Source: a virus. From it: DNA of 64,000 bases. The stretch is taken from IMG/VR virus record IMGVR_UViG_3300031658_000004, positions 2,395-66,394 of that record, one strand, 5' to 3'. The notes below the pieces were generated by a model that ran no database searches, was not told where the DNA came from, and worked only from the letters and a program-made list of their open reading frames with translations. Both the position numbers and the translations under genes were made by a program. Shown in pieces: positions 8,923 to 64,000 of this stretch (position 1 is its first letter; every line of letters begins with the position of its first letter).

Positions 8923-11900
8923 ATGGCTTGTAGAATAATTAGAGATGCTCAAGGGCAGGTGGAAACAGTATTTAATGAGAATGGTTTAGATTCTAAACTC
9001 TTTCATGATATTAAGATGGATTTAGGGCATGACCCTGAGTCTGCGCTAGTTGCCTATTTATCAGTGGATGAGTATTTAAAATCTAATAATATACCTGAGC
9101 AAAGTATTAACATGTCTTCTCCTTCAGTGAGAAGAATTATAGCCCCATTTAAAAGAAACCCAGATAGTTTAGAAGCGGAGACCTCGAAGCTTAAATCAGA
9201 TATGTTAAAATCTAGAGTAGGGGATTCTTTGAATTACTTATTTGAGAAATTAGGAGTTGATGTAAAGGTACTAGAATCTGTTACAGATGTTAATGGGGAG
9301 GTTATAGATCAGATAGCTGCAGCGGATATAGCTAATAGAATGATTGAACTTACTAGGTCCGGTAAAGACTTATCTATCTTAACAGAAGAAGCTTCTCACT
9401 TTATAGTAGAGGTTTTAAAAGCGCAAGGACATCCTTTATATGATACTATGCGTAGAGAGGTTATAGGTACTGAGATATACAAAGAGTTGATGAATCCTAG
9501 TAGCGCTCATTTTGAATTATATAATGGTAATGAGGATTTAATTGCTAGGGAAGCAATGGGGAAACTTATTCACCAAGAACTGGTAAAAGGAGAGACTAAA
9601 GAAAATAAAACTTTTAAAGCAAGATTAAACCGTTGGTTTACTAAAGTACTTGAACATTTAAATAGAATGTTTGGTAGAGCACATGCAGATCCTTTTGTAC
9701 AGACTGCACATGATGTCTTAAATAAAAATTTAGATTCTTATTTTAACGATATGTCTAAGACAGTTGGCTTAGAAAATAACAAATTCTATAATGAAGGTAC
9801 TAGACAGCAAAATATTATAGGTCAATTAAGTGAACAAGCAGATTTATATCAAATAGATAAATTAAGAATAGAAGATTTAAGTAGTAAGGAATTACGTCGT
9901 TATTTTACTAAGCTCTCAGAGGATGGGACTATAGAAAGATATGTAGGGAAAAAAGGTACTATATATGAAGGTAAGATACTAAAACAAAGAGGATCCGATT
10001 CAACCTCATTAAAATATGGTAATAAAGGTTCTAAGTATAGAAGTGCTGCAGAGACTAAGATAATTAACGATATGCAAAATATTCGTATGAGTACTGGTAC
10101 TAAAGGACATCTTGTAATGGAAGAGTTAATTAAGAAACTTACCGGACAAGGGAATGTATCTTATGCAGATATCTTAACTCAATCGGGCCCTTTATTTACT
10201 AAGAATCAATTTGATATATTAGTAGCTGGAGCTAAATTTTTAGTAAAAGAAGTAAAAGCTCAGCAATTAGAAATAAATAAACAGACTGGTACTACTGGTA
10301 AGTTTAAATTAATAACAGAGCAGTTTGTATCTGATGAGAAAAATAATATAGGAGGTACAATCGATATACTTGTAGTGTTTAGTGATGGATCTGCCTCTAT
10401 ATATGACTGGAAATTTAAGTCTCCTAGAATAGGGTCAAATGCAGAGATGACTAAAGGAGGTATAACTATCACTGGAGATATGTATGCTAGTTCTTTAGAA
10501 GGGTATGATAACCAAATAAATGCATATAAAAATGCATTATTATCTAAATACGGGGTAACAAAAATAAGACATTCTAGAATAGTACCTATCTCTGTTATGT
10601 TTAAGAGAGATGAGAATAATATTATGACTGATACTATTACTTATCTTGCTATGTGGACAGGCCAAGATACAGACAATAGATTTTTAGAGCACATACCTGT
10701 AGCTAATGAAATGACTGAGGATGAAAGTATAAATAGACTTATACGATCAGAGATGAGTAGATATAATGACTTAGCACGAAAGGTTAAACATGCTCCTTAT
10801 GCAGAGAGAAGTACATTAGAAAAGAAAATGTCAGATTCTAGGCTGATTATTAAGAGATTACAAATTGACCAAGAAGTTGGGGCTGGAATTGTAGAGTCTT
10901 TTAAAATATTAAAGAAAGTACATTCAGGGTTAGGCGTTGAAGAAGAATTCACTGTAGATGAAAATGGAGAAGCGGTTTTAAATCCTATGTATCTTACTGA
11001 TGAAGAATTAAAAGAGTCTTATGAAGAGTTAATTCATTTCTTAGCTTTTTCCTCTTTACCAGAGATAAGAGCTACTTTACAACAGTCTAAATCTAAACAA
11101 GATAAAGCATTACTAGCTGAGATGATGAAAGCATCTTTTGAAATTAGTACAACTATTGAGCAGATGAAAGTTCATATGGTTAATCGAGTAGACAAGAAAG
11201 CTAGGGGTAAAAATATAAGTAATATTAAGTATAATAGAAAAGGTACTCTAGAAGCATGGATACCATCTTCTGCACATAAATCTCCTTATAGTAGGTATAT
11301 TTATGATACTATGCATAATATGAAAACTATTATGATCCGAAAAGAAAAAGAATTGGCTCAGGAGATTTATGAATATGAACAAGAATTGTTTGCATGGGGA
11401 GAGTCTAATGGATATGATAATATAAAAGTATTTGATTTATTAATTAACCCAGACACACATAATCTACATCCTAAGTATACAGAGAGTTTATATGATCTTA
11501 AAAATAGAGCTAAAAAAGATGGTAATATAGGGTGGATGAAAACGTATTACTCTGCAGATATGGAGTATTACAATAAAGAGTATAAGAATTGGGAAAATAA
11601 ATCCTTTAAAGCTATAGACTCTTTAAATTTATCTAAGGAAGCTAAAGACGCTAAGAAACAACAATGGCAACAAGAGTATGATGTACTCTCTTATGATTCT
11701 GCATGGTTAGGAAATGGAGGTCAATACTTTACAAAGTTAAATACAGAAACTGCGTCGGAATTCTTAACTCCGGCTTATAAACAAATACAAGCTAATCCTG
11801 CTTTAAAGAATTTTTATGAATATCATATTAAGAAGGTAGGGGAATTTGAAAAAATGTTTGGTATGAAGTTAGGGCCAACATTCATTGCTAATGTACAACA

Positions 11901-13836
11901 AAGTTTGGTAGATAGTATATTAGAATCTGATAGTAAAATACAAGCACTAAAAGAATCTGCAATTGATTCTTTAAATGTAAGGGAAAGTAGTATGTCTTTA
12001 GGTTCTGTAGATTTAGAAGGTAATTTTATAAGAGAAATCCCTAGATTATATACTAGAGAACTTACAAACTCTGATAATGAAGTTGATAGATCACTGAGAT
12101 CTAAAGAATTAGGTAGATCTTTATATTTATTAGGGAAATCTGCTATGGAGTATGAATACTTAAATAGTGTAAAGGATGATTTACTGCTTTTAGAATTAGT
12201 ATTAAAAGAAGGTATGATAGGTGAGGTACAAGAAGATCTTAGAGGTAATCCTGTACAAGAAACTGTAGACCAAGCACGAAAAATATTTGGGAATGCTCAA
12301 CAAAGTTCTTCAGAGTTATTTACAGATATGATAAATGAAACGTTATACGGTAAGAAGATGAAAACTACAGATGCTGTATCTGAATCAGGAGTTAGTTTTA
12401 TTAAAGTAGGGTTAGCAGGTAAATCCTTTTCTTCTATTGCTGCTTTAGGTTTAAAAGTACCAGTTGCTTTAGGTGCTTTAGGAGCAGGTATAATAGGGCT
12501 TCATATACAAAGTGCTAAAGGAATACATTATAATGCTCAACAATTGAAAGAAGCTGAGAAGGCCCTTATCTCTAGAGATCCTAAAGTAAGAGCAATATTA
12601 GAACATTTTGAAGTTGTCCTTATTGATATGTCTAAAAGAAGAGGAGATGAATTAGCTTCAAATTGGAAGTCTAAATATTTAACACAAGATAGATGGTTTG
12701 AGTTTTTAGCTCAAGCTGATAAGATGATCGATGCTACTTTAGCAGTAGCTATGGCGAAGAATCATGGGATAGATGAAAATGGTAACTTAAAACGTTTAGA
12801 TCAATTACCAGAAGGTACTGTATCATTATATGATTCTATTGAGGTAACTGAAAATCCTAAATGGAAGAAAGGAGCTCCTATTGATAAGTATAAGGTTAAA
12901 ATCCCATCTGAAACTGAAGATAGTTATGGATCTTTTAGAGCTAGGGTACATAGAATGAGTAGTAAAGTTAAAGGTACATCAGCACCTGAAGATTTAACTA
13001 CCGCTAAACAACATCTTATTAATAGATTCTTTATGCATTATAGATCATGGTTACCAGGTATTGCTTTAGAGAGATTTGGTAAGACTAAATATGACCATGT
13101 ATTAGAGACATTTGATCAAGGTACTTGGAGAGGCTTCTTTGGTAACTTCGGTCCAGAGACTGGATTTGATGATATGGGGCAATTGCTAGATGTAGAAGTA
13201 GGAGCACATGAATACCTTATGGAAATAGGTACAGATTTAATTAAGATAGGACTTGATGCTAGTATATTTACATTTGCGAAAAAAGGTACAGCACAAATAA
13301 AAGAAAAGAAAGCAAGACATGCCTTTGAGAAACATGTCTTGGATAACGTTGGTAATGAAGAGTATAACTATAAGACTCCCGAAGCTAAGGAGCTTGCATT
13401 TCAAGAGTTCTTGAAAATGAAACAAGGAAACCTCAAAGCCATGATTGCTGAAATAAGAGCCGTTGTTTTACTCTTCTTAATGATGAGTTTCGCAGGTGGG
13501 GATTATGATGATGATGGTAAAACAGATATTAGACAAACTTGGACGGGTAGAAAACTACATAATGTTTTAGGTAGAATTTATCGTGAGACAGCAATATTCT
13601 TAGATCCAACAGAAATGACGGGCCCAAGAGCATCCGGATTACCTATACTCTCATTAGGTAAAGATTTATCTGGGTTAGCAGCTAATAGTTTAGATGAAAT
13701 AAGAGATGCACTTTTTGGAGAAAATGATAAGAATGATTCAAAGCCTGTAGGATATCAATTAATAAAATTTGCACCAGGTATAAATGGATTAGCAAAAGCA
13801 GCGGAGATATACCCTCAATACAAATATGCTAGGTAA
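8923..13836 (+). CDS. Large virion cargo protein with degenerate zincin-like and PD-(D/E)XK nuclease-like domains
   Basis: 1637 aa; LTEEASHF...EA resembles a degenerate HExxH; EQFV...GGTIDILV...IYDWKF...QINAY is a RecB/PD-(D/E)XK signature; follows vRNAP. Confidence 0.7.
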   Translation: MACRIIRDAQGQVETVFNENGLDSKLFHDIKMDLGHDPESALVAYLSVDEYLKSNNIPEQSINMSSPSVRRIIAPFKRNPDSLEAETSKLKSDMLKSRVGDSLNYLFEKLGVDVKVLESVTDVNGEVIDQIAAADIANRMIELTRSGKDLSILTEEASHFIVEVLKAQGHPLYDTMRREVIGTEIYKELMNPSSAHFELYNGNEDLIAREAMGKLIHQELVKGETKENKTFKARLNRWFTKVLEHLNRMFGRAHADPFVQTAHDVLNKNLDSYFNDMSKTVGLENNKFYNEGTRQQNIIGQLSEQADLYQIDKLRIEDLSSKELRRYFTKLSEDGTIERYVGKKGTIYEGKILKQRGSDSTSLKYGNKGSKYRSAAETKIINDMQNIRMSTGTKGHLVMEELIKKLTGQGNVSYADILTQSGPLFTKNQFDILVAGAKFLVKEVKAQQLEINKQTGTTGKFKLITEQFVSDEKNNIGGTIDILVVFSDGSASIYDWKFKSPRIGSNAEMTKGGITITGDMYASSLEGYDNQINAYKNALLSKYGVTKIRHSRIVPISVMFKRDENNIMTDTITYLAMWTGQDTDNRFLEHIPVANEMTEDESINRLIRSEMSRYNDLARKVKHAPYAERSTLEKKMSDSRLIIKRLQIDQEVGAGIVESFKILKKVHSGLGVEEEFTVDENGEAVLNPMYLTDEELKESYEELIHFLAFSSLPEIRATLQQSKSKQDKALLAEMMKASFEISTTIEQMKVHMVNRVDKKARGKNISNIKYNRKGTLEAWIPSSAHKSPYSRYIYDTMHNMKTIMIRKEKELAQEIYEYEQELFAWGESNGYDNIKVFDLLINPDTHNLHPKYTESLYDLKNRAKKDGNIGWMKTYYSADMEYYNKEYKNWENKSFKAIDSLNLSKEAKDAKKQQWQQEYDVLSYDSAWLGNGGQYFTKLNTETASEFLTPAYKQIQANPALKNFYEYHIKKVGEFEKMFGMKLGPTFIANVQQSLVDSILESDSKIQALKESAIDSLNVRESSMSLGSVDLEGNFIREIPRLYTRELTNSDNEVDRSLRSKELGRSLYLLGKSAMEYEYLNSVKDDLLLLELVLKEGMIGEVQEDLRGNPVQETVDQARKIFGNAQQSSSELFTDMINETLYGKKMKTTDAVSESGVSFIKVGLAGKSFSSIAALGLKVPVALGALGAGIIGLHIQSAKGIHYNAQQLKEAEKALISRDPKVRAILEHFEVVLIDMSKRRGDELASNWKSKYLTQDRWFEFLAQADKMIDATLAVAMAKNHGIDENGNLKRLDQLPEGTVSLYDSIEVTENPKWKKGAPIDKYKVKIPSETEDSYGSFRARVHRMSSKVKGTSAPEDLTTAKQHLINRFFMHYRSWLPGIALERFGKTKYDHVLETFDQGTWRGFFGNFGPETGFDDMGQLLDVEVGAHEYLMEIGTDLIKIGLDASIFTFAKKGTAQIKEKKARHAFEKHVLDNVGNEEYNYKTPEAKELAFQEFLKMKQGNLKAMIAEIRAVVLLFLMMSFAGGDYDDDGKTDIRQTWTGRKLHNVLGRIYRETAIFLDPTEMTGPRASGLPILSLGKDLSGLAANSLDEIRDALFGENDKNDSKPVGYQLIKFAPGINGLAKAAEIYPQYKYAR

Positions 13837-33722: not shown

Positions 33723-35621
33723 TTATTTCTCCCAACATTTACTTACTGTTACTTCAGCCTTTAATAGGCCATTTGTTACTATCTCTTCAGCTGCTGTCTC
33801 CATTATTATCTTCATAAGTATAGTCCATTCATCTAAATACTCATTACTACATATAGTATCTATTTGATCATGCACAGTCATTACTAATTTAACAGGAGCA
33901 TTACTAATAGCTATATGAGTACGCATTAATACTAAAGCACGCTTAGTCATATCTGCACTAGCTCCTTGAATAGGTGTATTCTTACTAGCTCTTTCAATTG
34001 ATGAGAACTCTTGAGAGTTTTCTCTTGAGTTATACATCTTAGGGAACCAATTAGTAAACCATCTTCTTCTATTATAAGGAGGGAAGGTTTTAATATAACC
34101 AAACTTTGTACCAAAACTGCCAAGCTTATCCAAGAATCCTTTGATTGATGGGAACGCATTGAAATAGTCTTCAATTAATTGTTCAGCATCTTTCTTATCT
34201 ATTTGTAGAGTATCAGCTAATTTGCTTGCACCCATACCATAAGCAAGACCAAAGTTAATAGTCTTAACGTTAGTTCTAAGCCTCTTATGTTCTTTACACT
34301 TACATTTAGACTTGTTCTTCATATACTCACAATCAGGTTCAGCCTGATCAGTCCACTTTGAACCATAAACCAACTCAGCACATACACTATGTAAATCTTT
34401 ACCTTCTTCTAATGCTTGTAACCATACAGGATCTTTTGATCCAAATGCTATAACGTTTAACTCTTGTGAGCTATAATCAGCTGAGACATACTTCCAACCT
34501 TCTGGTGCTATAAAGCAATTACGAAAGGCATTATCTGCTGGTATCTGTTGCATATTAGGACGAGCACTACTTACTCTACCTGTGTCTAGTATTTGATTGA
34601 AGCTTGTGTGTACTCTACCATCAGACTTTAAACTTGATATAAACTTTGCCCCATAAGAAGAATAGATTTTCATCTGCTCTTTATATGTTATGTAAGTCTT
34701 AATCATCTTAAACTTGTTTACATACTTAGATATATCTTTACCATTTACATTAGTAAGCTTAGGTATAAACTGTTGAAATACATCTAGTACTTGTTTAGGA
34801 CTTGTCCACTTAACATTCACTTGTCTTAATTCACTAACATCAGAGAATAAATCTCCTTGTATATGTGTAGGAATAAATTTAGTTAGTTGGTTGTCAGTTA
34901 ATATATATTCATCTAACTCTGCTTCGCAGTCTTCAGCTTTGATAAGAGCATTTTCAGCTAATCCAAGCCATTTTTCTGTATCTAAATCTAAACCATTATA
35001 TTCAATATCAGCAAATGCTAACACTGCTTCATTCTCTAAGTTTATTGTATTTTCTAATTTATGTAGTGCTGTGTATCCATCTTGCTTATTCTTTAAAGCA
35101 ATTAAGAATTCAACATCTTTAGCTGCGTATACTAATTGAGGTACTGTGAAATCTCCTGTGTGTCCAATAAAACTAGACTGTTGAGTCTTATCCATTTGAA
35201 TACCAAGGTTTCTTTCTAATGTATTTAATAGTGATACTGATAATCCTTTACCACAAGTTAATACTTTTTCTCCTAACATAGTATCATATACATTTTCACA
35301 TTGTATATCAAAGCTAGACCTAATGAAGTTTACATCAAACTTAGCATTATGAAATATCTTTGTTATAGTTGTGCTTTCAAGTACTTCCTTTAGCTCTTGT
35401 ATATCGTGTCCTCGAGTCTCTATTAAGAACTGTTTATCTTCATCTCCTATCTGAAATAGTATTACTCTGTCATCAGTGTAATCTAATCCAGTTGTTTCAG
35501 TATCAATTGCTAAGATACTCTTATCTTTACAATAAGATACAACCTCTTCCATGGTTACATGGTCGAAGTTGTCTCTTTGTAATCTATCATTAACTAGTTG
35601 TATAGTTTTATTTATTTCCAT
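33723..35621 (-). CDS. polA: DNA polymerase family A with 3'-5' exonuclease
   Basis: DTETTG, HNAKFD, TGRVSS, NMQQIP, DYSSQEL, KTINFGLAYG, NTPIQG, VHDQ. Confidence 0.95.
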   Translation of the reverse strand: MEINKTIQLVNDRLQRDNFDHVTMEEVVSYCKDKSILAIDTETTGLDYTDDRVILFQIGDEDKQFLIETRGHDIQELKEVLESTTITKIFHNAKFDVNFIRSSFDIQCENVYDTMLGEKVLTCGKGLSVSLLNTLERNLGIQMDKTQQSSFIGHTGDFTVPQLVYAAKDVEFLIALKNKQDGYTALHKLENTINLENEAVLAFADIEYNGLDLDTEKWLGLAENALIKAEDCEAELDEYILTDNQLTKFIPTHIQGDLFSDVSELRQVNVKWTSPKQVLDVFQQFIPKLTNVNGKDISKYVNKFKMIKTYITYKEQMKIYSSYGAKFISSLKSDGRVHTSFNQILDTGRVSSARPNMQQIPADNAFRNCFIAPEGWKYVSADYSSQELNVIAFGSKDPVWLQALEEGKDLHSVCAELVYGSKWTDQAEPDCEYMKNKSKCKCKEHKRLRTNVKTINFGLAYGMGASKLADTLQIDKKDAEQLIEDYFNAFPSIKGFLDKLGSFGTKFGYIKTFPPYNRRRWFTNWFPKMYNSRENSQEFSSIERASKNTPIQGASADMTKRALVLMRTHIAISNAPVKLVMTVHDQIDTICSNEYLDEWTILMKIIMETAAEEIVTNGLLKAEVTVSKCWEK

Positions 35622-35880: not shown

Positions 35881-36468
35881 TTATAGCATCATACTTGTAT
35901 CGAAATCTTCTACAGCTTCCATAGTCTCTGATGCAGCAAGAGTCTTAGAGTCTGGTTGTAAGAATGTATGAAGGTTATCTGTATCTTCATTAGTTTGAAT
36001 AACATCAGTATTACTAAAGATGTAATCTCCTTCACTTGTAATGAAATCTCCGTCTTTTCCTTTTCTCTTTGCAGATTGCTCAAGATTATCAGCTTGCCAT
36101 TCAGATGGCTCTGTAGTTTCTTCGATGATTACTCTGAATCTAGTTCCTTGATACTCTGGATTTAAGATATCTAACTCTAAAATTTCTCCTTTAGGAGTCA
36201 TTTCCCAGTCAGCATCATTACCAAAGTTTACTCCAAATACATCAGATGCATCAGCAGGCTCAGCAGTTAACCAACATCTTCTAGCACTTGAACTAAATCT
36301 TTCGTCTGATTTGTTAAGTAAGCCTAAAGCACTCATTGGTTTAGTTGTAGCACTAATGATTTCTGCAAATTCTAAATGTATCTTGTTGTTTTTCACTTTT
36401 CTAGCATTTACTAATAAAGTGTCTCCTTTTTTAAGTGCATCTATTGCACTCTTGTTGTTTTGTCCCAT
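35881..36468 (-). CDS. Putative single-stranded DNA-binding protein
   Basis: 195 aa, beta-rich, acidic C-terminal tail, just upstream of polA. Confidence 0.45.
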   Translation of the reverse strand: MGQNNKSAIDALKKGDTLLVNARKVKNNKIHLEFAEIISATTKPMSALGLLNKSDERFSSSARRCWLTAEPADASDVFGVNFGNDADWEMTPKGEILELDILNPEYQGTRFRVIIEETTEPSEWQADNLEQSAKRKGKDGDFITSEGDYIFSNTDVIQTNEDTDNLHTFLQPDSKTLAASETMEAVEDFDTSMML

Positions 36469-36496
36469 GTTGTTTAATTGTTTTTATGGATTATTT

Positions 36497-36530
36497 TTGA
36501 TGATTTAATAAAGGTATATCATCAACCTTT
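36497..36530 (-). promoter_or_regulatory. H-type pseudoknot in 5' leader
   Basis: AAAGGU/ACCUUU stem; loop UGAUGAU complementary to downstream AUCAUCA. Confidence 0.6.
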
Positions 36531-36718
36531 TATATTGTATCTTTGTGTAATACTATACTTATCTTATTATTTAGTATAAGTTTAATAAAGTCTAACATAT
36601 TCTTTCGAGAGCCTTTTGCTTTGCTTATCTCCCAGTCTATTAGGTTTGTTAATCTAAATAAGTTCTTTACACTCATATTTGTAGTACATATCTTTTTGTT
36701 ACGGATTTTAATGGTCAT
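36530..36718 (-). CDS. Hypothetical protein
   Basis: 62 aa basic ORF. Confidence 0.45.
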   Translation of the reverse strand: MTIKIRNKKICTTNMSVKNLFRLTNLIDWEISKAKGSRKNMLDFIKLILNNKISIVLHKDTI

Positions 36719-36737
36719 TTATTATGTAAGGTATTAG

Positions 36738-36807
36738 ATAATCCTCCTGAATGCGTCGAGTATTAGTCATCAGGCGCATGCCTTTCCGTCTTATATCGTG
36801 GGATTAT
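36738..36807 (-). ncRNA. Unclassified structured RNA element (motif copy 2)
   Basis: AUAAUCC/GGAUUAU closing stem; internal AGGC-AUGC-GCCU hairpin; AUGCG/CGCAU and CCUGA/UCAGG pairings; GC-richer than flanks. Confidence 0.5.
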
Positions 36808-36814
36808 TGTGTTA

Positions 36815-37093
36815 TTAATCGTGAGAGATACTGCTATTTGGGGATAAGTATAATGCTGCCTTACTTAAACCTGATAATAATGTAAGTTTAGTGTCATCAT
36901 TATCATCTAATGTACCATCAATGTATGTTATAGCAGTTTTAAGTGCTTTTATCATATTTTGAGTAGGTCGTTCGTTTAACTTCTCGGTGGCATCTATTAA
37001 GTCTGCTCCTATACTATCTAATTGTGCAGTTAACTTAGTTATTTCCAAGTTCTTTGCTAATATCTTACTGTTTAGTTCCGTAAATTCTGACAT
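36815..37093 (-). CDS. Coiled-coil hypothetical protein downstream of twister
   Basis: 92 aa, heptad pattern. Confidence 0.65.
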   Translation of the reverse strand: MSEFTELNSKILAKNLEITKLTAQLDSIGADLIDATEKLNERPTQNMIKALKTAITYIDGTLDDNDDTKLTLLSGLSKAALYLSPNSSISHD

Positions 37094-37120
37094 TTGTCTA
37101 ATTTTTAATTAATAAATTGT

Positions 37121-37176
37121 GTGCTCACTCTGCATTTCTCAACTAGGCTTGTGACCAGTATTGCTGCATTAAGCAC
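37121..37176 (-). ncRNA. Twister self-cleaving ribozyme (type P1)
   Basis: GUGCU-UAA-UGCA-GC-AAUA-CUGG-UCAC-AAGC-CUAG-UUGAGAAA-UGCA-GA-GUGA-GCAC: P1, P2, P4, T1 (UCAC/GUGA) and T2 (GC/GC) pseudoknots and conserved UAA/AAGC/GAG nucleotides all present. Confidence 0.9.
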
Positions 37177-37545
37177 GAGCTAGGGAGTTATCAACTCCAG
37201 AATTCAATCAATGGCCTTACGACCTTTACTCTCGACACATATTATAGAGTTCAACCTCTATTATCACATATTTCTATGCATTTAACACCCCACTACAGGA
37301 TATAATATATTACCTAAGCTCAATGACGTGAACTATTATGGCAATCTTGTGTCATAAAACAATAGATTTATTCTATTATTGTTTATGAATTCTTATCAGT
37401 TTCTATTGTTAAATAGATGAAACTACTCACATTTGTAAGTAATCCTACGACTAGATGTCTAACTAATACCGAGATACCATTGTTTCCACTGGTACTATAC
37501 TCGATTCTATCTCTAAGAGAGGCTTGCAAACCTCCCCTTGCTATC
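37177..37545 (-). ncRNA. Candidate large structured non-coding RNA (~370 nt)
   Basis: About ten consecutive hairpins with GNRA loops (GGAA, GAAA, GUAA), G-U pairs favouring the minus strand, long-range GAGCUUAGG/CCUAGCUC helix. Confidence 0.6.
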
Positions 37546-37743
37546 TTATTTGTAATATCTATCTGCAATATCTTTAGACTCTCCTATCTTTAAGTCTGTT
37601 ATACATTCAATTATCCTAACTGTGCTTGACTTGCTAAATCTTCTACTAAGTTTTTTAGCAATATCATCTAATTGAGTACCACTAGTTTGATTTGCTAATA
37701 TTTCTAAGGACTTAGCTATCCTTTTTGCTGTTGGTTCAGTCAT
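37546..37743 (-). CDS. Hypothetical early protein
   Basis: 65 aa ORF. Confidence 0.6.
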   Translation of the reverse strand: MTEPTAKRIAKSLEILANQTSGTQLDDIAKKLSRRFSKSSTVRIIECITDLKIGESKDIADRYYK

Positions 37744-37759
37744 CTCAATTATTTATTAA

Positions 37760-37972
37760 TTACCACCTATGCTGTATTTTAGGCACATCAAATACTAAAT
37801 GAGCATTATCATCCCAAGGTCTATTTGGGCATGATGTACTATCTTGTATTTGTGGTGTATCATATCTAGTTATATGTACATCTAACTCCTCTGATTCTAT
37901 AACATCAGAGAAGTTATCTTGTTTAAGATACATATCTGTCGATACTATCTTATCTTCATAATTATATCTCAT
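37760..37972 (-). CDS. Hypothetical early protein
   Basis: 70 aa ORF. Confidence 0.55.
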   Translation of the reverse strand: MRYNYEDKIVSTDMYLKQDNFSDVIESEELDVHITRYDTPQIQDSTSCPNRPWDDNAHLVFDVPKIQHRW

Positions 37973-38145
37973 GACTTAATTATATCTTTTAATACATCTA
38001 CTTGTGCTTGTAGTTTAGTGTTATTTGTTTCAAGATAGTGAACTAAGGCTTCTATTTTATATAGTAAGTCTTGAGGTACAACATAAAGATGCTCTCTATG
38101 TCTTATTATTTCTCGTTTTAATTGATTTCTTTCTAGTATATTCAT
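37969..38145 (-). CDS. 58-aa hypothetical early protein (not in ORF track)
   Basis: MNILERNQLKREIIRHREHL...; ATGA overlap with next gene. Confidence 0.6.
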   Translation of the reverse strand: MNILERNQLKREIIRHREHLYVVPQDLLYKIEALVHYLETNNTKLQAQVDVLKDIIKS

Positions 38146-38159
38146 CTCTTTATTTATGT

Positions 38160-38465
38160 TTAGGTAATGATTAGTTCTTTGTATAGTTTATTTATTCTTG
38201 TTTCTTCATCATCATTTAAACCCGCTGAATTCTCTTTAGTATGACTATCTTGAAATATACCTAATTGATTCGCATCATGTAAATGTTTGAGTAAACAGAT
38301 TATTGTTGTGTAATGATGATGACATATTTCAATTGATTTTGAATCACATCCATCAGCATTAGGAACATCACAACAAATAGCTTTAGCTAGTTTTGTTAAT
38401 GTTACTCTAGGGTCATCCCATTTTGCATCAAATCTTGTATTACGGTCTATGCTTTTTTTACTCAT
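38160..38465 (-). CDS. Hypothetical Cys/His-rich early protein
   Basis: 101 aa; CC..C..CHHH..C. Confidence 0.55.
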   Translation of the reverse strand: MSKKSIDRNTRFDAKWDDPRVTLTKLAKAICCDVPNADGCDSKSIEICHHHYTTIICLLKHLHDANQLGIFQDSHTKENSAGLNDDEETRINKLYKELIIT

Positions 38466-55496: not shown

Positions 55497-58400
55497 ATGG
55501 CATTAAAGAATGTAGTAGTTAGTGGTGGACATCAAAATCTAATAACCACAAGTGGGTATAGAGCTATTATTGTCAGTTCTGAGATTACCAATTATATCGG
55601 CCCAGTTGATACTGTTGTAAGTGTAGTTGATTTAATGTCAGGAGGTGCTACTACAACACCTGTAACTACTACTAATACTTCTCCATACGATTATATTCTT
55701 CTTAGTTATAATAATCTTGGGGCCACTGAACTTACTAGAAGTATTCGAGTAACATGGGATGATGGAGGTTATAAGGATTTTAATGTTAAATTATCTCCTA
55801 CTGACTTAAATCCTGTTTGGGGTACTGCCACTAGTGGTTATACTGATTATGTATCTATTGATGGATGTAATTCTCCTTTTCAGGGGTATAGACCTTTTAC
55901 TGCTAATATTTCATATGCGGGAACAACAACTACAAGTACTAAAATAGTTAATGCTGTTGCAGGATCTAATATACCTCAAGGTGCATTTCATTACACTGTA
56001 ACGATTCCAGACGCTTCTTTTAAAGATGTAAGTATAACATCTATGTCACTTGCCCATGGAGGTCCATCTGCCTTTATCACTAAAGGTCTTATAGGGGAAC
56101 AACATTATGAAACTCTTAGTACATTCGTAGCATCTGGATGGGCAGGATCTACACTACTCGCTACTACAACAGATGATGGAGGTGCTGCTTTTGACAGTAC
56201 AGTTATTGACATTGATAATCAGACTAGGATGTATAGTACTGGATCAGGTATAACTGGTAATAAAGCTCCCTGGTTACATACTCATCATTATGTAAATGAT
56301 ACACCAAATTGTCCCTCACCTTTAAGTTTGTGTGATGATTCTGCTAATATTAACTGGTGGGCGTATACTAATACAGAATGTGATGGTACTGCACTTCCCG
56401 CTGCTCTTATAGCAAATAATTTGTTGTTGGGCACACAAGGATGTTCAGCATGTGATTATTATAATGATAATACTTGTACTGCGGCAGACTGTTATGCGTG
56501 TTCAAATCTTAGTATAGCCAATAGTGGATTGGTTACTGGAGTAGTAACACAACATAGTTGTTATATTTACGGAGATATTACTATTGATGTATCAGCTGCT
56601 ACTGATTCTACTGGTCCTATTGATGTATATATAATCCCAGTTCCTAATACTACAATAAATGCTGGTGTTACATGGACATCTACTAGTGGTAATGATACTA
56701 TTGGATATGCAAGTATTACACCTATAGCAGGTCAAATTGTTATTGATGAAACTACATCCTATACCGCAAATAATAGTATAGATCCTGGAGTACTAACTAT
56801 ATTAAATATAGAATCCGCTTCTACACAAAATAATACAACTGTAAATTATACAGGAACTCCAGGACTACCACTTGATGCTGGTTCGTATGTTATATTATTG
56901 GTAGATTCAAATGGATGTATTTGGAAAAAGAAACCCCCATATCTCGTATCTACCGCTCCAACTATAACATGGTCGCAAGTACAGGCGGTTCCAACTTGTG
57001 GATCTAGTGATTTAGATATGTCAGTAACCCCATTAGGACCCCCAGCAAATGTAGCTGCAGCAACAGTTACCTGGACAGGCCCAAATGGTTTTACTCACAC
57101 CGGAACAAGTATACCATCTGGTATTATAGATTGTAGTGCCCCTTATATTGCTACTATTACAGATGTCTTAGCAGGATGTCCCCCAAATCCTTTAACCTTT
57201 AACCCTGTATATTGTATTCCAACAGCAACAGTAACGGCATCACCACAAGTAGTTACAATCTGTGAGACGGATACAACTCCTATTACGTTTACAGCGGTAG
57301 GATCTGTACCTAACTGGAGCCCTTCATGTGGTACAGGAACTTATGAATGGAGAGGCGTAGGAGGTACTCCTTTATATAGTACTAATGCAGTCTGGGGACC
57401 TAATAGTTGGGGGTCTAGTTCTGCTGGTACTTATGTGTACGAAGTAACTTATACAGAATCTTGTTCTGTAAGTCAAGGAGGATCTAATTGTACCGCTGTG
57501 GATACTGTAACAGTTATTGTAGAGAGTAGAGGCTGTACAAATCCAGTAGCTATTAATTATGATCCTGCAGCGTCGTGTGATGATGGTAGTTGTATTCTCT
57601 GTTCTAATCTCATTAATGTAAGTTCTACTACTCCAATTACCTGTTATGGGGGTACTGATGGAACCGCGACAGTAAATACCTCTGGGGGTAGTGGTAATTA
57701 TACATACTCCTGGAATACAACTCCTGTTCAAACAACTCAGACTATTATAAATCTGCCTCCAGGAGCACTAGTCTGTACAATAGTAGATACAACTACCGGA
57801 TGCTATGAATCTGTGGTTGCAGTTGTTGCAGGAATGCCAAACATAAGTACAGTTTTACAAATTACACATAATACATGTAATAATAATGGTAGTATACAAG
57901 CCATCATGGGTGGAGGAACAGGTACATTTACTTGGCTATGGAGTACTGGAGCTACCACTCAAACTATTAACAATCTAGCAGCAGGAACATATACCTGTCA
58001 AGCTACCGATTCTAATTTATGTGTGGGTACTTTAATGACAGCAGTTGTTCTAGATAACGCTGTATATGGCTGTACAAATGCTGCATCCAGCAACTATAGT
58101 GTATCAGCAACCTGTGATGATGGTTCTTGTGTGGTTCCAGGTTGTACAGATGATGGACTCCAAAGTGCATCATGGTGGTCGGATCCTGCTTCTAATACAA
58201 CGGGTATAGCGTACGATGTTATAACTGGTATATCAACGTATCCGATGGCTCAACCTTCGAACTATAACTCTTTAGCTACAATAGATGATGGTTCATGTGT
58301 TTACCCTCCTGCTATAACAGGGTGTTGTCTAACTATAACTGGTTTTGGTTCTGGGATTATTACAAATTGTACACTAGCTCATTCCTCGCATTTAACTTGC

Positions 58401-61400
58401 GGATGGTCTGGGACTATAACGTTACTTAGCCAAATACATAGTGTACAATTCTGGGACCCAACTCTTAATAGTGGAACAGGAGCTTGGATAACTACAAGTT
58501 CTATAAGTGTAGCTGCTCCAAGCATTAATAGTGTGGTATCATGGGATTATGATTGTAATGCAGGAGGAGTACTGGTAGATCATTTTAATAATAACTCTAT
58601 CGATGGAGAATATAGAGTTGTGATTGTGACAACTATGGGGGATGGGACAATATGTACTGCTGAATCAGCTACAACTTATATTGATTTTCCTATTTGTGGG
58701 TGTACAGATCCATTAGCTACAAATTATGATGTAACAAGTACTTGTGGTACTAATACTTGTTTATATCCAGATCCTTGTACGATGTCATTAACTATGACTC
58801 CTAATCTTTGTTATCAGAATAGTTCGGTGGTAACTGTATCTGGAGGTACTGGTCCATTTACGTATGCCTGGTATACACTTCAAAATCCTGGTGTAGTAAC
58901 AGCTACAGGGTCTACACAACATGGTTGGGTTGAAAGTCCTATAGGATCATGGACTACTATACAAGGAATTAATGTTGGGTTTCCTTTTGGTGGGAATGGA
59001 GTTTCAAATAATTTTTATTGTGTAGTTACCGATACTTCAAATGGGTGTCAAGAAACTGTAGGGGTATGGACACCAGTGTACTCTCCTTCCACTACCAGTT
59101 ACATGGTTCATGCTACGGTTGGTGATGCTATGTATTGTCCTAGTAATGGAGTTCCTGCTTGTTGTGGTTCCTATCAATTATATGTAGGAGTAACAACTCC
59201 ACAAGTATCAATATTATCAGTCTCTGTTACCGGACCTAATGGTTATACATCGACTTTATTAGCAGACACCGGCCTTGATGTAGGTACTTATAACTTTTCT
59301 GCTTTAATGAGTAATAATTGTACTTATTCCCATTACTTTGATATTTATGCAGCTCCTCAACTAGAAGGATGTACAGATCCTACCGCTTGTAATTATGATC
59401 CTATGTCTGCTTGTGATGATGGAACGTGTTTTTGGCTTAATTTAACAGCTACTCAACCAACATGTGCAGTATCAACAGGTTCTCTAACAGCAAATATTGT
59501 AACTGCTACGGGTCTCCCAGTTGATTTTCATATATATTGGACTACCCCAACTGGTGTAAACTTTAGTTATCAACCTCTATTACCTGCAAGTAGTTGGCCT
59601 ATAACAGAATCAGGATTATCAACGTTTGGAACATATATTGTTACTGTATGGACTTTCCAATTAGGTATCTGTACTAAAACTATAGATTTAATTGATCCTA
59701 ATCTTATACAGGGATGTATGGATGTATTAGCTAGTAATTATAATGCTGCTGCAAATTGTGACTGTTGTTGTGTATATTGTAATATATCTATAACGGATAC
59801 TATAATTTGTTTGGACAATTCAATATCTCAGGATGGTTCAATTAATCTTGTAGTAATTGGAACCGCTCCTTTTACATTTTCCTGGACTGGACCTGGTGGA
59901 TTTACTTCAACATCACAAAATATTGGAAGTTTAACAACTGCTGGTACGTATACATGTATTGTTACAGATGCTCTTGCTTGCTCTGAAACATATACAGGTG
60001 TTATAATAGATTGTACTCCTTATATAGCCCCAACTATAACCTCTACTATAACGATAGATACATCTTGTCAAGTGTCCATGCAAATACTTACCACAGGAGG
60101 AGGAGCTATAGGACCATCCCAACTTTATTTTATTGATTCTTTAGGTAATTCTGTAGCTGGTAATTCAAGTACTGGTTATTCTATTACTCAGCCTAATCCT
60201 CAGAACACAACGTTTAGCATACAATGTGATGTCGTTGGACAACTTACAAATTCTATAACTAATTCTGGCCCGTGGAATCTTGTCCCAGGTCAGACTTATA
60301 CTCCTGCTATTAATTATACTTTCCCAACTGGTATTACGGGAACTGCTGTAGGTCTTCCTATGGTAGTATCTATGAACGCTGCTATGGTATGTGGTTGTAT
60401 GGATGTAGCAGCAGATAATACTAATGAAGATTGTAGTGGTAATACTGTAGTTCCTACATGTGATGTATGCTGTGTGACCTGCAATAATACTGTAGTATTA
60501 GGCTACGCGCATGGTACATGTGGTAATGGAACTGATGTAACAGCTACTATAGGTAGTGGGTCTGGAACTTATGTTTGGTCTGGTACTCTTAATGGTGCAA
60601 CATCTACTACGAATATTATAACGGGAGTTATAGGTACTGGGCCTGTTACTGTTACATTTACAGATGCTGTAACTGGGTGTGAACATATAGATACATTATC
60701 ATTTACAGATCCTCAGTCTCAAGTAACTTTAGGAGAGACTCATACTTGTGCTAGTAATATAACTGAAGATAATGGGACAATTACTACAACAATAGCACCT
60801 GGTAATCCAGTGTATATATTTTTATGGACAGCTGCTAATGGAGGAGTAGTACCTGTAGGACAGTCTACCCTTCAAAATCTTACAGCTTTAATACCTGGAG
60901 ATTATACACTTGTTATTACAGATAGTTTAGGATGTACTGATACGATTACGGTAATTATTACTAACTGTTGTGTGACAGGATGTACAGATAATATTAATTA
61001 TGCATTTAATTATGATGTGACAAATATATGCACTTGTAATTCTGGTGCACCAAATGATTGTTGTGTGTACCCACTACCTGTTGCTACTTTAACTCAAGGG
61101 GTAACTAATTGTAATAATACAATTTCTTTAAGTGTAACAGATACAAATACAGATGCATTAGCAAATACGGCTAGTGCTACTTTTCAAGTTATACACGATC
61201 CTGCAGGAGTAAATACACTTTTACTTACACCATTACCTGTACCTCCTACTGGAGTAGATACTTATGGGTTTATCTTTGTTGAAGACTGTAGTAATTGGTG
61301 GCAATCTATTGACGGGGATTATGCTATTCAATATGTTATAACCTATTCGAATGGACATACAGAAACTATAATATCACCTACTGTATCTTATACTAGGAGA

Positions 61401-64000
61401 ATTTGTGGGTGTACGGATACAACTGCAACAAATTATAACGCAGCAGCCACTTGTGATGACGGCTCATGTACATACCCTGGAGCTATAACATGTACTTTAT
61501 CTACACTGGTATTTACTGCCGGGTGTAATGAAACTCTTACAATAAATGCTTCTGATTCCAGTTCTAATACTATTGCAAGTTGGCAATATGATTATTTAGA
61601 TCCTTTAAGTACAGTAATATATACTGGTACTGCTACTACTACTATTCTAGTAGACTCACCTCTAGTTGATGGGGCATGTGGTCCAGCCGTGTTTGGATTA
61701 CTTCCAAATACAACATATACTGTTGTTGTAACTGCTACTTATACTAATGGAACTACTGCAACATGTACAACTGCTCCAATAACTACTACAAACTTTATAT
61801 GTGGGTGTACAGATGTTAACTCCCCCAATTATACTGCAGGGGCTACATGTGATGATGGATCATGTACTTATCCTTGTTGTGATACTCCGATCCTACAAGC
61901 TACCGGAAATAATGTTGGTGCATGTAATTTAGAATGGGAGGCTACATTAAACTGTAATACACCTGTAACTAACAATGCAGAGACAGTAGTTACTACATTA
62001 CAATTTTGGGATGGAGCAGCGTGGCAAGTGTCCGATGTAGATACTTATAATCCTACACCTGGTGTTAATGCTATAACAACTCGTACTGTAACCTATAATT
62101 ATACGTGTGTATCTGCAAATACATTTGGTACTTATGGTACTGGTGATTATAGAGCAGTATTTGATATAACTTATGTTGGAGGATCTACGTGTCAATTAAT
62201 AAGCACTCAAAACACAATTACTTTTGGTACTTGTGGGTGTACGGACTCTTCCCCAGGTGCTAACCCAGATATTTATGGGAATGATAGTGCAGGACTTCCA
62301 TGTATTACACCTTGTGGCCTTGGATTTGCAGTTACGACGTATGATCCTCTTGCTATGTGTGATGATGGATCATGTATAACTAGTTCTTGCTGTTCTCCAG
62401 ATACTTTAATTATAGATCCTAATACTCCTGTCTGTGCGCCAGACTTAATCTTTACAGCAACTTGTAATCCGGTTACTGTAGGACATGTTATGAATTGGTA
62501 TAAATGGGATACTGGTACTGCGGCTTGGGTATTACTTACAACTATAACTGTAGCAGCAGCTAATACAAGTCTAACGGAAATATTAGATAATTCCTTCTTA
62601 CATACTACTCCAGGGTCAGAAGTTTATAGGGCAGAGGCAGTAATTACATACTCTGGTACTACCTGTACAATATACTTAGATTATACATACACACCTGAAC
62701 CTCTAGGATGTATGGATTCTACGCCTGGACTTCATCCAGATATAAATGGGGAGAGTAGTCTTGCGATATATGACTGTGCTATATCAAGTACAATTCCTAC
62801 TCTAAGCGTTCCATGTGTTTATCCATGTACTAGTGGGTACACCTCAAGTAATTATGATCCTTGTGTTTTATGTGCAGGACCATGTACTATTACTGATTAT
62901 GTACATAACTGGGAAAAGTGTGGAACCTCTACTATTTATACTTTTGTAGATATAGCTCAAACAGGGGCTGGAAGTGAGAGTAATGATTACTGGATTGCTA
63001 TAGGCTCTCCTTCAAACTTTGCTAATGTTATAAATTATGCTACCGAGTGCTATACATATTTAGGAGTAGGACCTACTCTTGGTACAATTATAAATTATTC
63101 CCCTGCTAATTATTTACTACTAGCTACCTACAATGACTGTACTTCTTGTGATCTAAACTTTCATGAATGGGATTTATGTGTGTGCCCAAGCGCGTGGTCT
63201 AATCCAATAGCCTGGGCAGACTGTGCAGAGGATATAGTTAATATGTTAGGAACTCCTACTTCTACATACCCTCTAGCTAATACCAGTTTTAATAATCAAA
63301 TATTTTATGATTATATAGTAGCTCAAAATGGAGGTCCTATAGCTATCGGAGATGTACTTACTATAAGACATGCATCAAATGCTTATGAATACTGTATCAC
63401 ATATTTAGGACCCCATACAGGTCCTGCCTCAGTTCACCATGGGTATACGACTATGGCAGGTGAGTTGGAGTTAGGAAATGATTTTTATTTTTCTGGGAGT
63501 GCAGATGTCTATGGGGATTGTTCAGCGTGTGCTTTAGCTCCTGATCTTTTCTTAGAATGGACTAAATGTGGTACAACTGATATTTATAATATAGTAGATG
63601 TGGGAGCAGGAGTGACTGCTTTAAATACTATAGCTTGGGTAGGTATTAATAATAATGCGGCCATAATAATGCCTAATGCAACATGGGGACCAACTATTGG
63701 ATCAACAGTTATAAAATTAACTGGTGGAGATTGTTTTACTTTCTCTGGTTATAATACTATTCAGGCAGCCAATGCTACAAGTGAATTGATTGATTCAACT
63801 CCAACTGTTACACTAGAACTAGATTGTACGTCTTGTTTATTAGTACCTGGATGTACGGATCCTACTGCATCTAATTACAACTTTAATTGCGCAGGATTAC
63901 CGGTAGTAGCAACACTTAACGATGGTTGTTGTGTGTATATTAATTCAGGTTGTATGGATGATGGATTACAAACTCAAGCTTATTGGGATGGTACAGAAGT
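55497..64000 (+). CDS. Giant Cys/Thr-rich repeat protein with SprB repeats and GCTD-NY-DDGSC repeats (>2800 aa, 3'-truncated; absent from ORF track)
   Basis: ATG at 55497; repeats at 57531 and 63948 are in the same frame and the track lists no closed ORF there, so the frame appears open to the end; ~14 GC[TM][DN] repeats; SprB-type CYGGTDGTATVNTSGGSGNYTYSW. Confidence 0.85.
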   Translation, partial: MALKNVVVSGGHQNLITTSGYRAIIVSSEITNYIGPVDTVVSVVDLMSGGATTTPVTTTNTSPYDYILLSYNNLGATELTRSIRVTWDDGGYKDFNVKLSPTDLNPVWGTATSGYTDYVSIDGCNSPFQGYRPFTANISYAGTTTTSTKIVNAVAGSNIPQGAFHYTVTIPDASFKDVSITSMSLAHGGPSAFITKGLIGEQHYETLSTFVASGWAGSTLLATTTDDGGAAFDSTVIDIDNQTRMYSTGSGITGNKAPWLHTHHYVNDTPNCPSPLSLCDDSANINWWAYTNTECDGTALPAALIANNLLLGTQGCSACDYYNDNTCTAADCYACSNLSIANSGLVTGVVTQHSCYIYGDITIDVSAATDSTGPIDVYIIPVPNTTINAGVTWTSTSGNDTIGYASITPIAGQIVIDETTSYTANNSIDPGVLTILNIESASTQNNTTVNYTGTPGLPLDAGSYVILLVDSNGCIWKKKPPYLVSTAPTITWSQVQAVPTCGSSDLDMSVTPLGPPANVAAATVTWTGPNGFTHTGTSIPSGIIDCSAPYIATITDVLAGCPPNPLTFNPVYCIPTATVTASPQVVTICETDTTPITFTAVGSVPNWSPSCGTGTYEWRGVGGTPLYSTNAVWGPNSWGSSSAGTYVYEVTYTESCSVSQGGSNCTAVDTVTVIVESRGCTNPVAINYDPAASCDDGSCILCSNLINVSSTTPITCYGGTDGTATVNTSGGSGNYTYSWNTTPVQTTQTIINLPPGALVCTIVDTTTGCYESVVAVVAGMPNISTVLQITHNTCNNNGSIQAIMGGGTGTFTWLWSTGATTQTINNLAAGTYTCQATDSNLCVGTLMTAVVLDNAVYGCTNAASSNYSVSATCDDGSCVVPGCTDDGLQSASWWSDPASNTTGIAYDVITGISTYPMAQPSNYNSLATIDDGSCVYPPAITGCCLTITGFGSGIITNCTLAHSSHLTCGWSGTITLLSQIHSVQFWDPTLNSGTGAWITTSSISVAAPSINSVVSWDYDCNAGGVLVDHFNNNSIDGEYRVVIVTTMGDGTICTAESATTYIDFPICGCTDPLATNYDVTSTCGTNTCLYPDPCTMSLTMTPNLCYQNSSVVTVSGGTGPFTYAWYTLQNPGVVTATGSTQHGWVESPIGSWTTIQGINVGFPFGGNGVSNNFYCVVTDTSNGCQETVGVWTPVYSPSTTSYMVHATVGDAMYCPSNGVPACCGSYQLYVGVTTPQVSILSVSVTGPNGYTSTLLADTGLDVGTYNFSALMSNNCTYSHYFDIYAAPQLEGCTDPTACNYDPMSACDDGTCFWLNLTATQPTCAVSTGSLTANIVTATGLPVDFHIYWTTPTGVNFSYQPLLPASSWPITESGLSTFGTYIVTVWTFQLGICTKTIDLIDPNLIQGCMDVLASNYNAAANCDCCCVYCNISITDTIICLDNSISQDGSINLVVIGTAPFTFSWTGPGGFTSTSQNIGSLTTAGTYTCIVTDALACSETYTGVIIDCTPYIAPTITSTITIDTSCQVSMQILTTGGGAIGPSQLYFIDSLGNSVAGNSSTGYSITQPNPQNTTFSIQCDVVGQLTNSITNSGPWNLVPGQTYTPAINYTFPTGITGTAVGLPMVVSMNAAMVCGCMDVAADNTNEDCSGNTVVPTCDVCCVTCNNTVVLGYAHGTCGNGTDVTATIGSGSGTYVWSGTLNGATSTTNIITGVIGTGPVTVTFTDAVTGCEHIDTLSFTDPQSQVTLGETHTCASNITEDNGTITTTIAPGNPVYIFLWTAANGGVVPVGQSTLQNLTALIPGDYTLVITDSLGCTDTITVIITNCCVTGCTDNINYAFNYDVTNICTCNSGAPNDCCVYPLPVATLTQGVTNCNNTISLSVTDTNTDALANTASATFQVIHDPAGVNTLLLTPLPVPPTGVDTYGFIFVEDCSNWWQSIDGDYAIQYVITYSNGHTETIISPTVSYTRRICGCTDTTATNYNAAATCDDGSCTYPGAITCTLSTLVFTAGCNETLTINASDSSSNTIASWQYDYLDPLSTVIYTGTATTTILVDSPLVDGACGPAVFGLLPNTTYTVVVTATYTNGTTATCTTAPITTTNFICGCTDVNSPNYTAGATCDDGSCTYPCCDTPILQATGNNVGACNLEWEATLNCNTPVTNNAETVVTTLQFWDGAAWQVSDVDTYNPTPGVNAITTRTVTYNYTCVSANTFGTYGTGDYRAVFDITYVGGSTCQLISTQNTITFGTCGCTDSSPGANPDIYGNDSAGLPCITPCGLGFAVTTYDPLAMCDDGSCITSSCCSPDTLIIDPNTPVCAPDLIFTATCNPVTVGHVMNWYKWDTGTAAWVLLTTITVAAANTSLTEILDNSFLHTTPGSEVYRAEAVITYSGTTCTIYLDYTYTPEPLGCMDSTPGLHPDINGESSLAIYDCAISSTIPTLSVPCVYPCTSGYTSSNYDPCVLCAGPCTITDYVHNWEKCGTSTIYTFVDIAQTGAGSESNDYWIAIGSPSNFANVINYATECYTYLGVGPTLGTIINYSPANYLLLATYNDCTSCDLNFHEWDLCVCPSAWSNPIAWADCAEDIVNMLGTPTSTYPLANTSFNNQIFYDYIVAQNGGPIAIGDVLTIRHASNAYEYCITYLGPHTGPASVHHGYTTMAGELELGNDFYFSGSADVYGDCSACALAPDLFLEWTKCGTTDIYNIVDVGAGVTALNTIAWVGINNNAAIIMPNATWGPTIGSTVIKLTGGDCFTFSGYNTIQAANATSELIDSTPTVTLELDCTSCLLVPGCTDPTASNYNFNCAGLPVVATLNDGCCVYINSGCMDDGLQTQAYWDGTE

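Follow-up and report, generated by a model that had tools for sequence, protein, structure and literature searches.

Genomic setting of the element

The window analysed here, i.e., the whole stretch of 64,000 nucleotides, covers positions 2,395 to 66,394 of the IMG/VR virus record IMGVR_UViG_3300031658_000004, which is itself a fragment representing about 75% of a phage. The major head protein is approximately 31% identical to those of crAss-like phages, Flavobacterium phages were matched as well, and the portal and head proteins match PHROGs. The virus carrying the element is a marine crAss-like phage. On the plus strand the window contains giant ORFs at 2048-8869 (2,273 aa), 8923-13836 (1,637 aa) and 55497-63998 (more than 2,834 aa), and giant virion proteins are typical of crAss-like phages. 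The minus strand holds, within a region of small ORFs, a unit of approximately 425 nt (37547..37121) composed of a structured RNA (37177..37547) and a twister ribozyme (37121..37176) as its 3' module. The neighbouring gene for a family-A DNA polymerase (polA, 33723-35621) served as a query for related loci; it yielded 305 relatives in IMG/VR, and the best 80 loci among them were retained. In every carrier with polA in reach, the unit was found 1.5-3 kb upstream of this gene. It is from gene order alone that we infer the “early” status of the small-ORF region.

The unit is placed between two small ORFs of the same strand. The stop codon of the upstream one, 65 aa in length (37546..37743, minus strand), lies across the first conserved bases of the unit, so that in this phage a separate promoter gap would not fit between the two. 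Its sole homologue among the 80 polA-relative loci was found in L053, which has no twister. The downstream ORF of 92 aa (36815..37093, minus strand) gave no PHROG or Pfam match. The gap between the end of the twister at 37121 and the start of this ORF at 37093 is 27 nt, just as the sequence-only reading had counted it, and the leader of the ORF would begin with the 5'-OH remnant of the twister. A scan of positions 36400-38400 for sigma-70 promoters returned 11 promoter-like sites against 12.3 expected, the consensus being probably unfit for a Bacteroidota-type host, and a terminator scan of the same interval found none on the minus strand. No tRNA was found in the window, and nothing among 50,697 GenBank phage records matched positions 36500-38000 by blastn in distant mode.

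Small ORFs in the window between 36500 and 38800 on the minus strand have in common an A/T-rich leader motif ending just before the ATG, and a related motif is repeated before each small ORF in L010, L002, L035 and L062. It might serve this phage group as a promoter or as a signal for translation. Just 5' of the unit, L038 and L454 share a hairpin-like segment followed by T-rich sequence, while L002, L008 and L445 share another short conserved module; L008 has, in addition, a long hairpin with a T-run about 90 nt upstream of the unit. Because of these short 5' modules and the T-run hairpin of L008, some copies of the unit may possess a promoter of their own.

A type-P1 twister without P3

Alignment to the RF03160 covariance model identified positions 37176..37121 of the minus strand as a type-P1 twister without the optional P3 stem. 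Helix P1 is formed by 37176-37172 with 37125-37121, P2 by 37168-37165 with 37134-37131, and P4 by 37158-37156 with 37145-37143, the last enclosing the 10-nt loop L4 (37155-37146). A 4-nt linker (37162-37159) replaces P3, and the L2 segment is 8 nt long. The first pseudoknot, T1, joins two bases of L1 to L4 by the pairs G37164-C37147 and C37163-G37148. In the second, T2, positions 37153-37151 pair with 37128-37126, the latter being located within the 5-nt segment 3' of P2 that pairs back to L4. T2 reads CAC:GUG where the model consensus has CCC:GGG, a double change by which the pairing is kept. The predicted cleavage site is U37171^A37170 (U-1 = 37171), with A37169 following. These three bases are the UAA of the model and were invariant in 20 of 20 copies; U5 and A6 of the model were aligned to U37171 and A37170, so that the site proposed from sequence inspection coincides with the U-A step described as the twister cleavage site (PMC6154101). 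The guanine named as general base in the same paper is most likely G37130, a placement made by counting along the consensus.

The sequence-only reading had called the motif a canonical twister on the coding strand and had pointed to the Rfam twister-P1 model as a check. In a local Rfam scan by E-value, comprising 1,201 bases on both strands and 4,227 families (Rfam 15), RF03160 matched 37175..37122 of the minus strand over model positions 1-68 of 68, with 40.3 bits and an E-value of 4.4e-7. When the whole virus record of 66,394 bases was searched with RF03160, a single match was obtained at the same site (E 5.7e-9). This full-length match, together with covariation in 20 homologues, upholds the assignment to type P1. 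The word canonical fits less well. The order P1-P2-P4, the UAA internal loop with its U-A scissile step, and the double pseudoknot from L4 to L1 and L2 are those of RF03160, as probably are the conserved letters of L4 and L2, where all upper-case consensus letters were matched apart from the compensated T2 pair. In contrast to the model, the copy in the window lacks P3, has A-U instead of C-G as the middle pair of T2, lacks the third consensus C of L1, has an L2 which is 3 nt longer, and is fused to the 3' end of a structured RNA of approximately 371 nt. Outside P3, this one C of L1 is the only strongly conserved model position neither kept nor compensated.

The score also stays below the Rfam gathering score of 67.2 bits, both in the window and in the relatives (31.6-57 bits), and a scan of the whole window at gathering thresholds gave no matches. 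The low score results from the deletion of the P3 hairpin of the model. Stems P0, P3 and P5 are described as optional in twisters, P3 being present in 78% of the annotated ones, and a crystal structure exists of the basic type-P1 form without P0, P3 and P5, Osa-1-4 from Oryza sativa (PDB 4OJI; PMC6154101). Since P3 is optional, the sub-threshold score reflects where the curation threshold is set and not the loss of a core feature. The nested fold of the 71-nt twister stretch was of unremarkable energy (-16.7 kcal/mol, z -0.81, with 42 of 200 shuffles as good), and the significance of the motif therefore rests on the covariance model and on the covariation in 20 homologues.

A search with RF03160 found the twister in 10 of the first 50 polA-relative records and in one of the other 30, i.e., in 11 of 80. 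None of the six polA-relative records rated at least 90% complete had a twister by this search, and none of 14 control genomes gave a match at E<=0.01. Homologues reached 41.9-57 bits. With further pattern scans, 20 records in all were found to have the element. All 20 copies, of which 14 are distinct, were aligned to a model built from seven copies. The alignment was fitted to the nested helices of the model, which favours these helices, while T1 and T2 are outside the model and were written in afterwards. All 230 pair cells were standard, and 10 of 17 pairs showed compensatory changes: three of five in P1, four of four in P2, two of three in P4 and one of two in T1. For P1, P2 and P4 combined, 100% of the cells were paired in the 14 distinct copies, with nine of 12 pairs compensatory. 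Neither the pairing nor the covariation score was matched by any of 500 shuffles, and slid controls were 14-47% paired. The compensatory change in T1 was a replacement of one G-C pair by A-U in L026, a swap that recurs in five other viral twisters. T2 was invariant among the 20 copies and thus displayed no internal covariation.

These data bear on the question of whether the motif resembles a twister by chance or is a relic that has lost its activity. The score under the gathering threshold and the local fold of ordinary stability would agree with such a view. It is opposed by the complete pairing and by compensatory changes in four of the five helices among carriers whose polA is only 58-80% identical, and by the strongly conserved positions outside P3, which are kept or compensated with the exception of the L1 base. 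We consider a chance match or a relic extremely improbable. Judged by sequence comparison, the ribozyme is a genuine new member of the twister class, and its form is one overlooked in routine annotation.

The T2 variant is not confined to this group of phages. A pattern scan found it to be frequent in viral contigs, with at least 113 stretches among the matches listed. When 80 of these listed loci were searched with the twister model, 59 sites were obtained, several per contig, and 33 of the 59 were without P3. Probably all 59 are below the Rfam gathering score, as is the copy in the window. With the variant so common among viral contigs, it is nothing unusual in itself for a phage to have a twister. 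Two to four T2-variant twisters within a few kb were observed in a number of unrelated viral contigs (L170, L169, L110, L131, L142, L172, L132, L154, L101, L102, L105 and L107).

The upstream RNA and its association with the ribozyme

Alignment of the carriers showed conservation over approximately 370 nt 5' of the twister, with an abrupt start and stop and unrelated sequence on either side. According to nhmmer, RNAalifold and pair counts, this segment (37177..37547, minus strand) is a structured RNA of about 371-375 nt without an Rfam family. Its 16 helices are arranged as two multi-helix domains, at 37504-37394 and 37353-37234, with an A-rich linker between them. RNAalifold predicted 111 pairs from 10 copies, 70 of them with compensatory change. 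Of the 97 pairs located outside the twister, 64 were compensatory and 96.6% of the cells were paired, a result equalled by none of 500 shuffles; slid controls were 34-44% paired. As the structure was predicted from the same alignment that was used for the pair counts, the comparison with slid controls is partly favoured, though the margin is large. The sequence of the window, folded alone as the whole unit, had a minimum free energy of -122.4 kcal/mol (z -4.91) and the same architecture.

Two helices deserve separate mention. The first is a long-range closing helix of 7 bp, formed by 37507..37513 (5' strand) and 37177..37183 (3' strand), the latter directly 5' of twister P1. It is 98.6% paired, has four compensatory pairs, and is present in the single-sequence MFE structure. 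The second is a 5' hairpin (37518..37535) with an 8-nt loop, in which five of five pairs are compensatory. The 6-nt core of this loop is self-complementary, being palindromic in each of the 16 units for which the 5' end is available; even in L026, where its two middle letters are exchanged, it stays palindromic. The palindromic loop suggests that loop-loop pairing may occur between two copies of the RNA. Some peripheral parts are variable: L035 and L038 have an inserted hairpin of 39 nt (alignment columns 218-256), while the window and L026 are missing a helix extension (columns 318-336). Variable peripheral stems of this kind are typical of structured RNA.

No Rfam family matched the RNA at E<=10 in the window (4,227 models) or at E<=1 in eight relatives, apart from two chance-level hits of snoRNA models (E 9.3 and 2.6), both of them in the window. 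The candidates GOLLD, ROOL, OLE, HEARO, IMES, group I/II introns and RNase P were rejected, as there was no match to the Rfam models. Other self-cleaving ribozymes or known RNAs were likewise absent near the unit at the same E-values, and a gathering-score scan of 13 loci, mostly relatives without twister (140,828 bases), found neither ribozymes nor known RNAs. Like GOLLD, ROOL and OLE, the phage RNA is a large and intricately folded non-coding RNA, and RNAs of that type are described as forming homo-oligomers (PMC12286853). The self-complementary loop hints that self-association could take place here as well. The phage RNA differs from these three in the lack of an Rfam match, in its smaller size (approximately 375 nt) and in having a built-in ribozyme.

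The RNA and the twister were always found together. With nhmmer, the upstream RNA was detected only at twister-bearing loci. A covariance model made from the first approximately 146 positions of the RNA (the 5' domain), which contains no twister sequence, matched 16 of 16 twister loci reaching that far. In 90 sources comprising 836,677 bases there was no other match to this model, save one weak hit of 20 bits (rough E 0.049) at 5373-5490 of L022, a twister-less relative, downstream of polA; it is probably due to chance. A DNA pattern covering only the RNA body and one that demanded the twister too retrieved identical sets of 13 IMG/VR contigs. Two loose DNA patterns, run against viral and genome collections, gave chance matches, and among the matches listed the RNA was recognized by nhmmer only in L177, L125 and L308. 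The varying flanks and the sharp edges of conservation indicate that the twister goes with the RNA, not with a gene. Its tie to the RNA is, as far as the loci compared can tell, a strict one, and the putative obligate fusion of the two is the new element. A search of the literature on phages and Crassvirales, main texts only, found no description of a twister joined to a large RNA.

Among the relatives the unit is distributed in patches. Of 41 relatives whose sequence extends 2.6 kb or more upstream of polA, six have it, and among the four closest relatives it is present in two and missing from two. In L010, the slot with flanks homologous to those of L008 holds two small ORFs instead of the unit. 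From the patchy presence and from this replacement, the unit is best described as a dispensable accessory cassette in a hypervariable small-ORF region. Besides the two small ORFs, the slot in L010 (approximately 925-1494) contains a G+C-richer stretch of about 110 nt with complementary ends, which may be a different small RNA.

The same sharply bounded cassette, with its varied contexts and patchy distribution, would also be expected of a mobile or circularising RNA element, whose ribozyme-made ends are joined, for example by an RtcB-type ligase, in a viroid-like manner. A 2',3'-cyclic phosphate end is a ligase substrate by established chemistry, and the cut RNA could serve as one. However, only one ribozyme was present per record, no second self-cleaving motif was found at the 5' end of the RNA, and no back-joined contigs were observed among the RNA contigs of the four runs described below. 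We regard this explanation as very unlikely.

RNA contigs and the probable role of the ribozyme

Sequence from positions 36700-37800 was found in part in public sequencing runs. Among the 20 runs listed, 18 were RNA, and all 20 came from 13 studies; they were labelled marine, seawater or hydrothermal vent, and each contained 5-9% of the sampled words. Contigs from four RNA runs of four studies were examined; these are assembled contigs, from which true RNA ends cannot be read. At 90-99% likeness, they cover only positions 37173-37517, and the structured RNA is thus present in ocean metatranscriptomes. The gaps over the flanking ORFs are uninformative, since the flanks differ between strains. 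On the 5' side, contigs of X7 and X9 end 16 nt past 37517, and the X9 contig then enters adapter sequence. On the 3' side, contigs from X2, X7 and X9 stop at 37173 with no loose end, and those from X1 stop at 37177. Position 37173 is 2 nt short of the predicted cut and is polymorphic among relatives, for which reason an assembly break at this point is possible. The X2 contig of 383 nt extends from about the conserved 5' boundary to 37173, while a second X2 contig starts at 37158 and runs 117 nt downstream, into sequence unlike the window. The depths of these two contigs, 16.8 for the RNA and 3.6 for the downstream piece, cannot rank their abundance. No contig in the four RNA runs bridged 37159-37172, the interval with the predicted cut. 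The pattern of contig ends is what cleavage in vivo would produce, and it gives weak evidence for maturation of the upstream RNA.

Of the two products of twister cleavage, the upstream RNA ends in a 2',3'-cyclic phosphate and the downstream one begins with a 5'-OH. That the ribozyme is catalytically active, that it cuts in vivo and what the cut is for are inferences, and we favour the explanation, with a probability of roughly two in three, that the P3-less type-P1 twister, predicted to be active, is the 3'-terminal, 3'-end-forming module of a self-contained phage RNA gene of approximately 425 nt. The unit would be transcribed as part of, or into, the leftward small-ORF and replication transcript, and the body of approximately 371 nt would fold into its two domains, with the closing helix stacked beside P1. 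Cleavage at U37171^A37170 would then release an RNA of approximately 377 nt with a 6-nt tail bearing the 2',3'-cyclic phosphate, and leave almost all of the ribozyme, now starting with a 5'-OH, in the leader of the following ORF. As the cut is at the 5' edge of the ribozyme, the 3' end of the RNA would be almost scarless and made without a terminator, and transcription would continue into the downstream genes. A type-P1 twister, cutting at its own 5' edge, is therefore suited to finish the 3' end of an upstream RNA without stopping the polymerase. The sequence-only reading had assigned the ribozyme two tasks, maturation of the upstream structured RNA and of a 5'-OH-protected mRNA. The first of these is the best-supported reading, as the RNA is real, strongly covarying and always found with the twister, and trimming of its 3' end is the most likely function of the twister. 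Against it speak the dispensability of the unit and the fact that no promoter-like signal stood out for the 5' end of the RNA.

The second task leads to the alternative in which the twister is mainly an mRNA processor: a polycistronic transcript is cut, the 5'-OH leader alters stability or translation of the downstream message, and the adjacency of the RNA is incidental. Depending on the bacterium, a 5'-OH end can either stabilise or destabilise an RNA, as with the glmS product and RNase J1. The ribozyme does end very close to an ORF, the second X2 contig does run downstream from within the ribozyme, and processing of polycistronic mRNA has been suggested for bacterial twisters (PMC6765202). 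The gene downstream varies, however, homologues of the 92-aa ORF having been found in five of 11 twister loci among the best 80 polA relatives (six of 12 with the window included), as well as in L023 and L031, which have no twister. Moreover, the leader motif of the 92-aa ORF is the same as that of neighbouring ORFs without ribozyme, and in these phages no twister was found that lacked the RNA. In our judgement an mRNA processor is unlikely.

It is also conceivable that the upstream RNA is a sensor, in which a ligand, protein or RNA partner gates P1 and twister cleavage and hence downstream expression. The closing helix is contiguous with P1, by which one fold could affect the other, and the size and high conservation of the RNA would be surprising in a mere passenger. 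Yet neither the MFE nor the centroid structures contained a pairing that competes with P1, the RNA contigs hint at accumulation of the cleaved RNA as a separate molecule, and the downstream genes are variable. The length is also against it, as known sensor domains are far smaller than approximately 370 nt. A sensor is, on balance, quite unlikely.

For 3'-end formation, the closest functional parallel is found in the theta ribozymes, minimal HDV-like ribozymes next to phage tRNAs, for which a role in 3'-end processing in place of protein enzymes has been proposed (Kienbeck et al. 2024, PMC10879173). As described there, they too are small phage-encoded ribozymes with the cleavage site adjoining the end of a structured non-coding RNA. 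They differ in ribozyme class, in having a tRNA as partner instead of an RNA of approximately 371 nt, and in occurring in gut phages with recoding. Among 44 loci with other viral twisters that were scanned for tRNAs, one tRNA-like gene was located within about 65 nt of the twister (L169); in the remaining loci tRNAs were at least 240 nt away or absent. Adjacency to tRNA was consequently rejected as a general pattern of viral twisters. Bacterial twister and hammerhead ribozymes near phage genes are reported with their roles unresolved (Weinberg, Weinberg and Hammann 2019, PMC6765202). The ribozyme class and the phage setting are alike, and many viral contigs have multiple copies; in contrast to those bacterial twisters, the ribozyme studied here is tied to a constant structured partner, and this suggests that it has a specific job.

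Only tentatively do we suggest the wider reading, which is rather doubtful at present, that the RNA of approximately 375 nt constitutes a new class of ornate phage RNA, one that may self-associate via a palindromic kissing loop and for which the twister makes the 3' end within an operon without a terminator. The data in any case flag a strongly covarying phage RNA outside the known families, present in ocean metatranscriptomes of several studies. The P3-less form with an A-U pair in T2 scores below the Rfam gathering threshold, and such viral twisters are missed by routine annotation. The fixed partner and the geometry point to one testable function, scarless formation of the 3' end of an RNA embedded in a transcription unit. 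Under the wider reading, if true, a phage twister would for the first time have been assigned a defined biological job, namely to mark where a functional RNA ends and not to regulate an mRNA.
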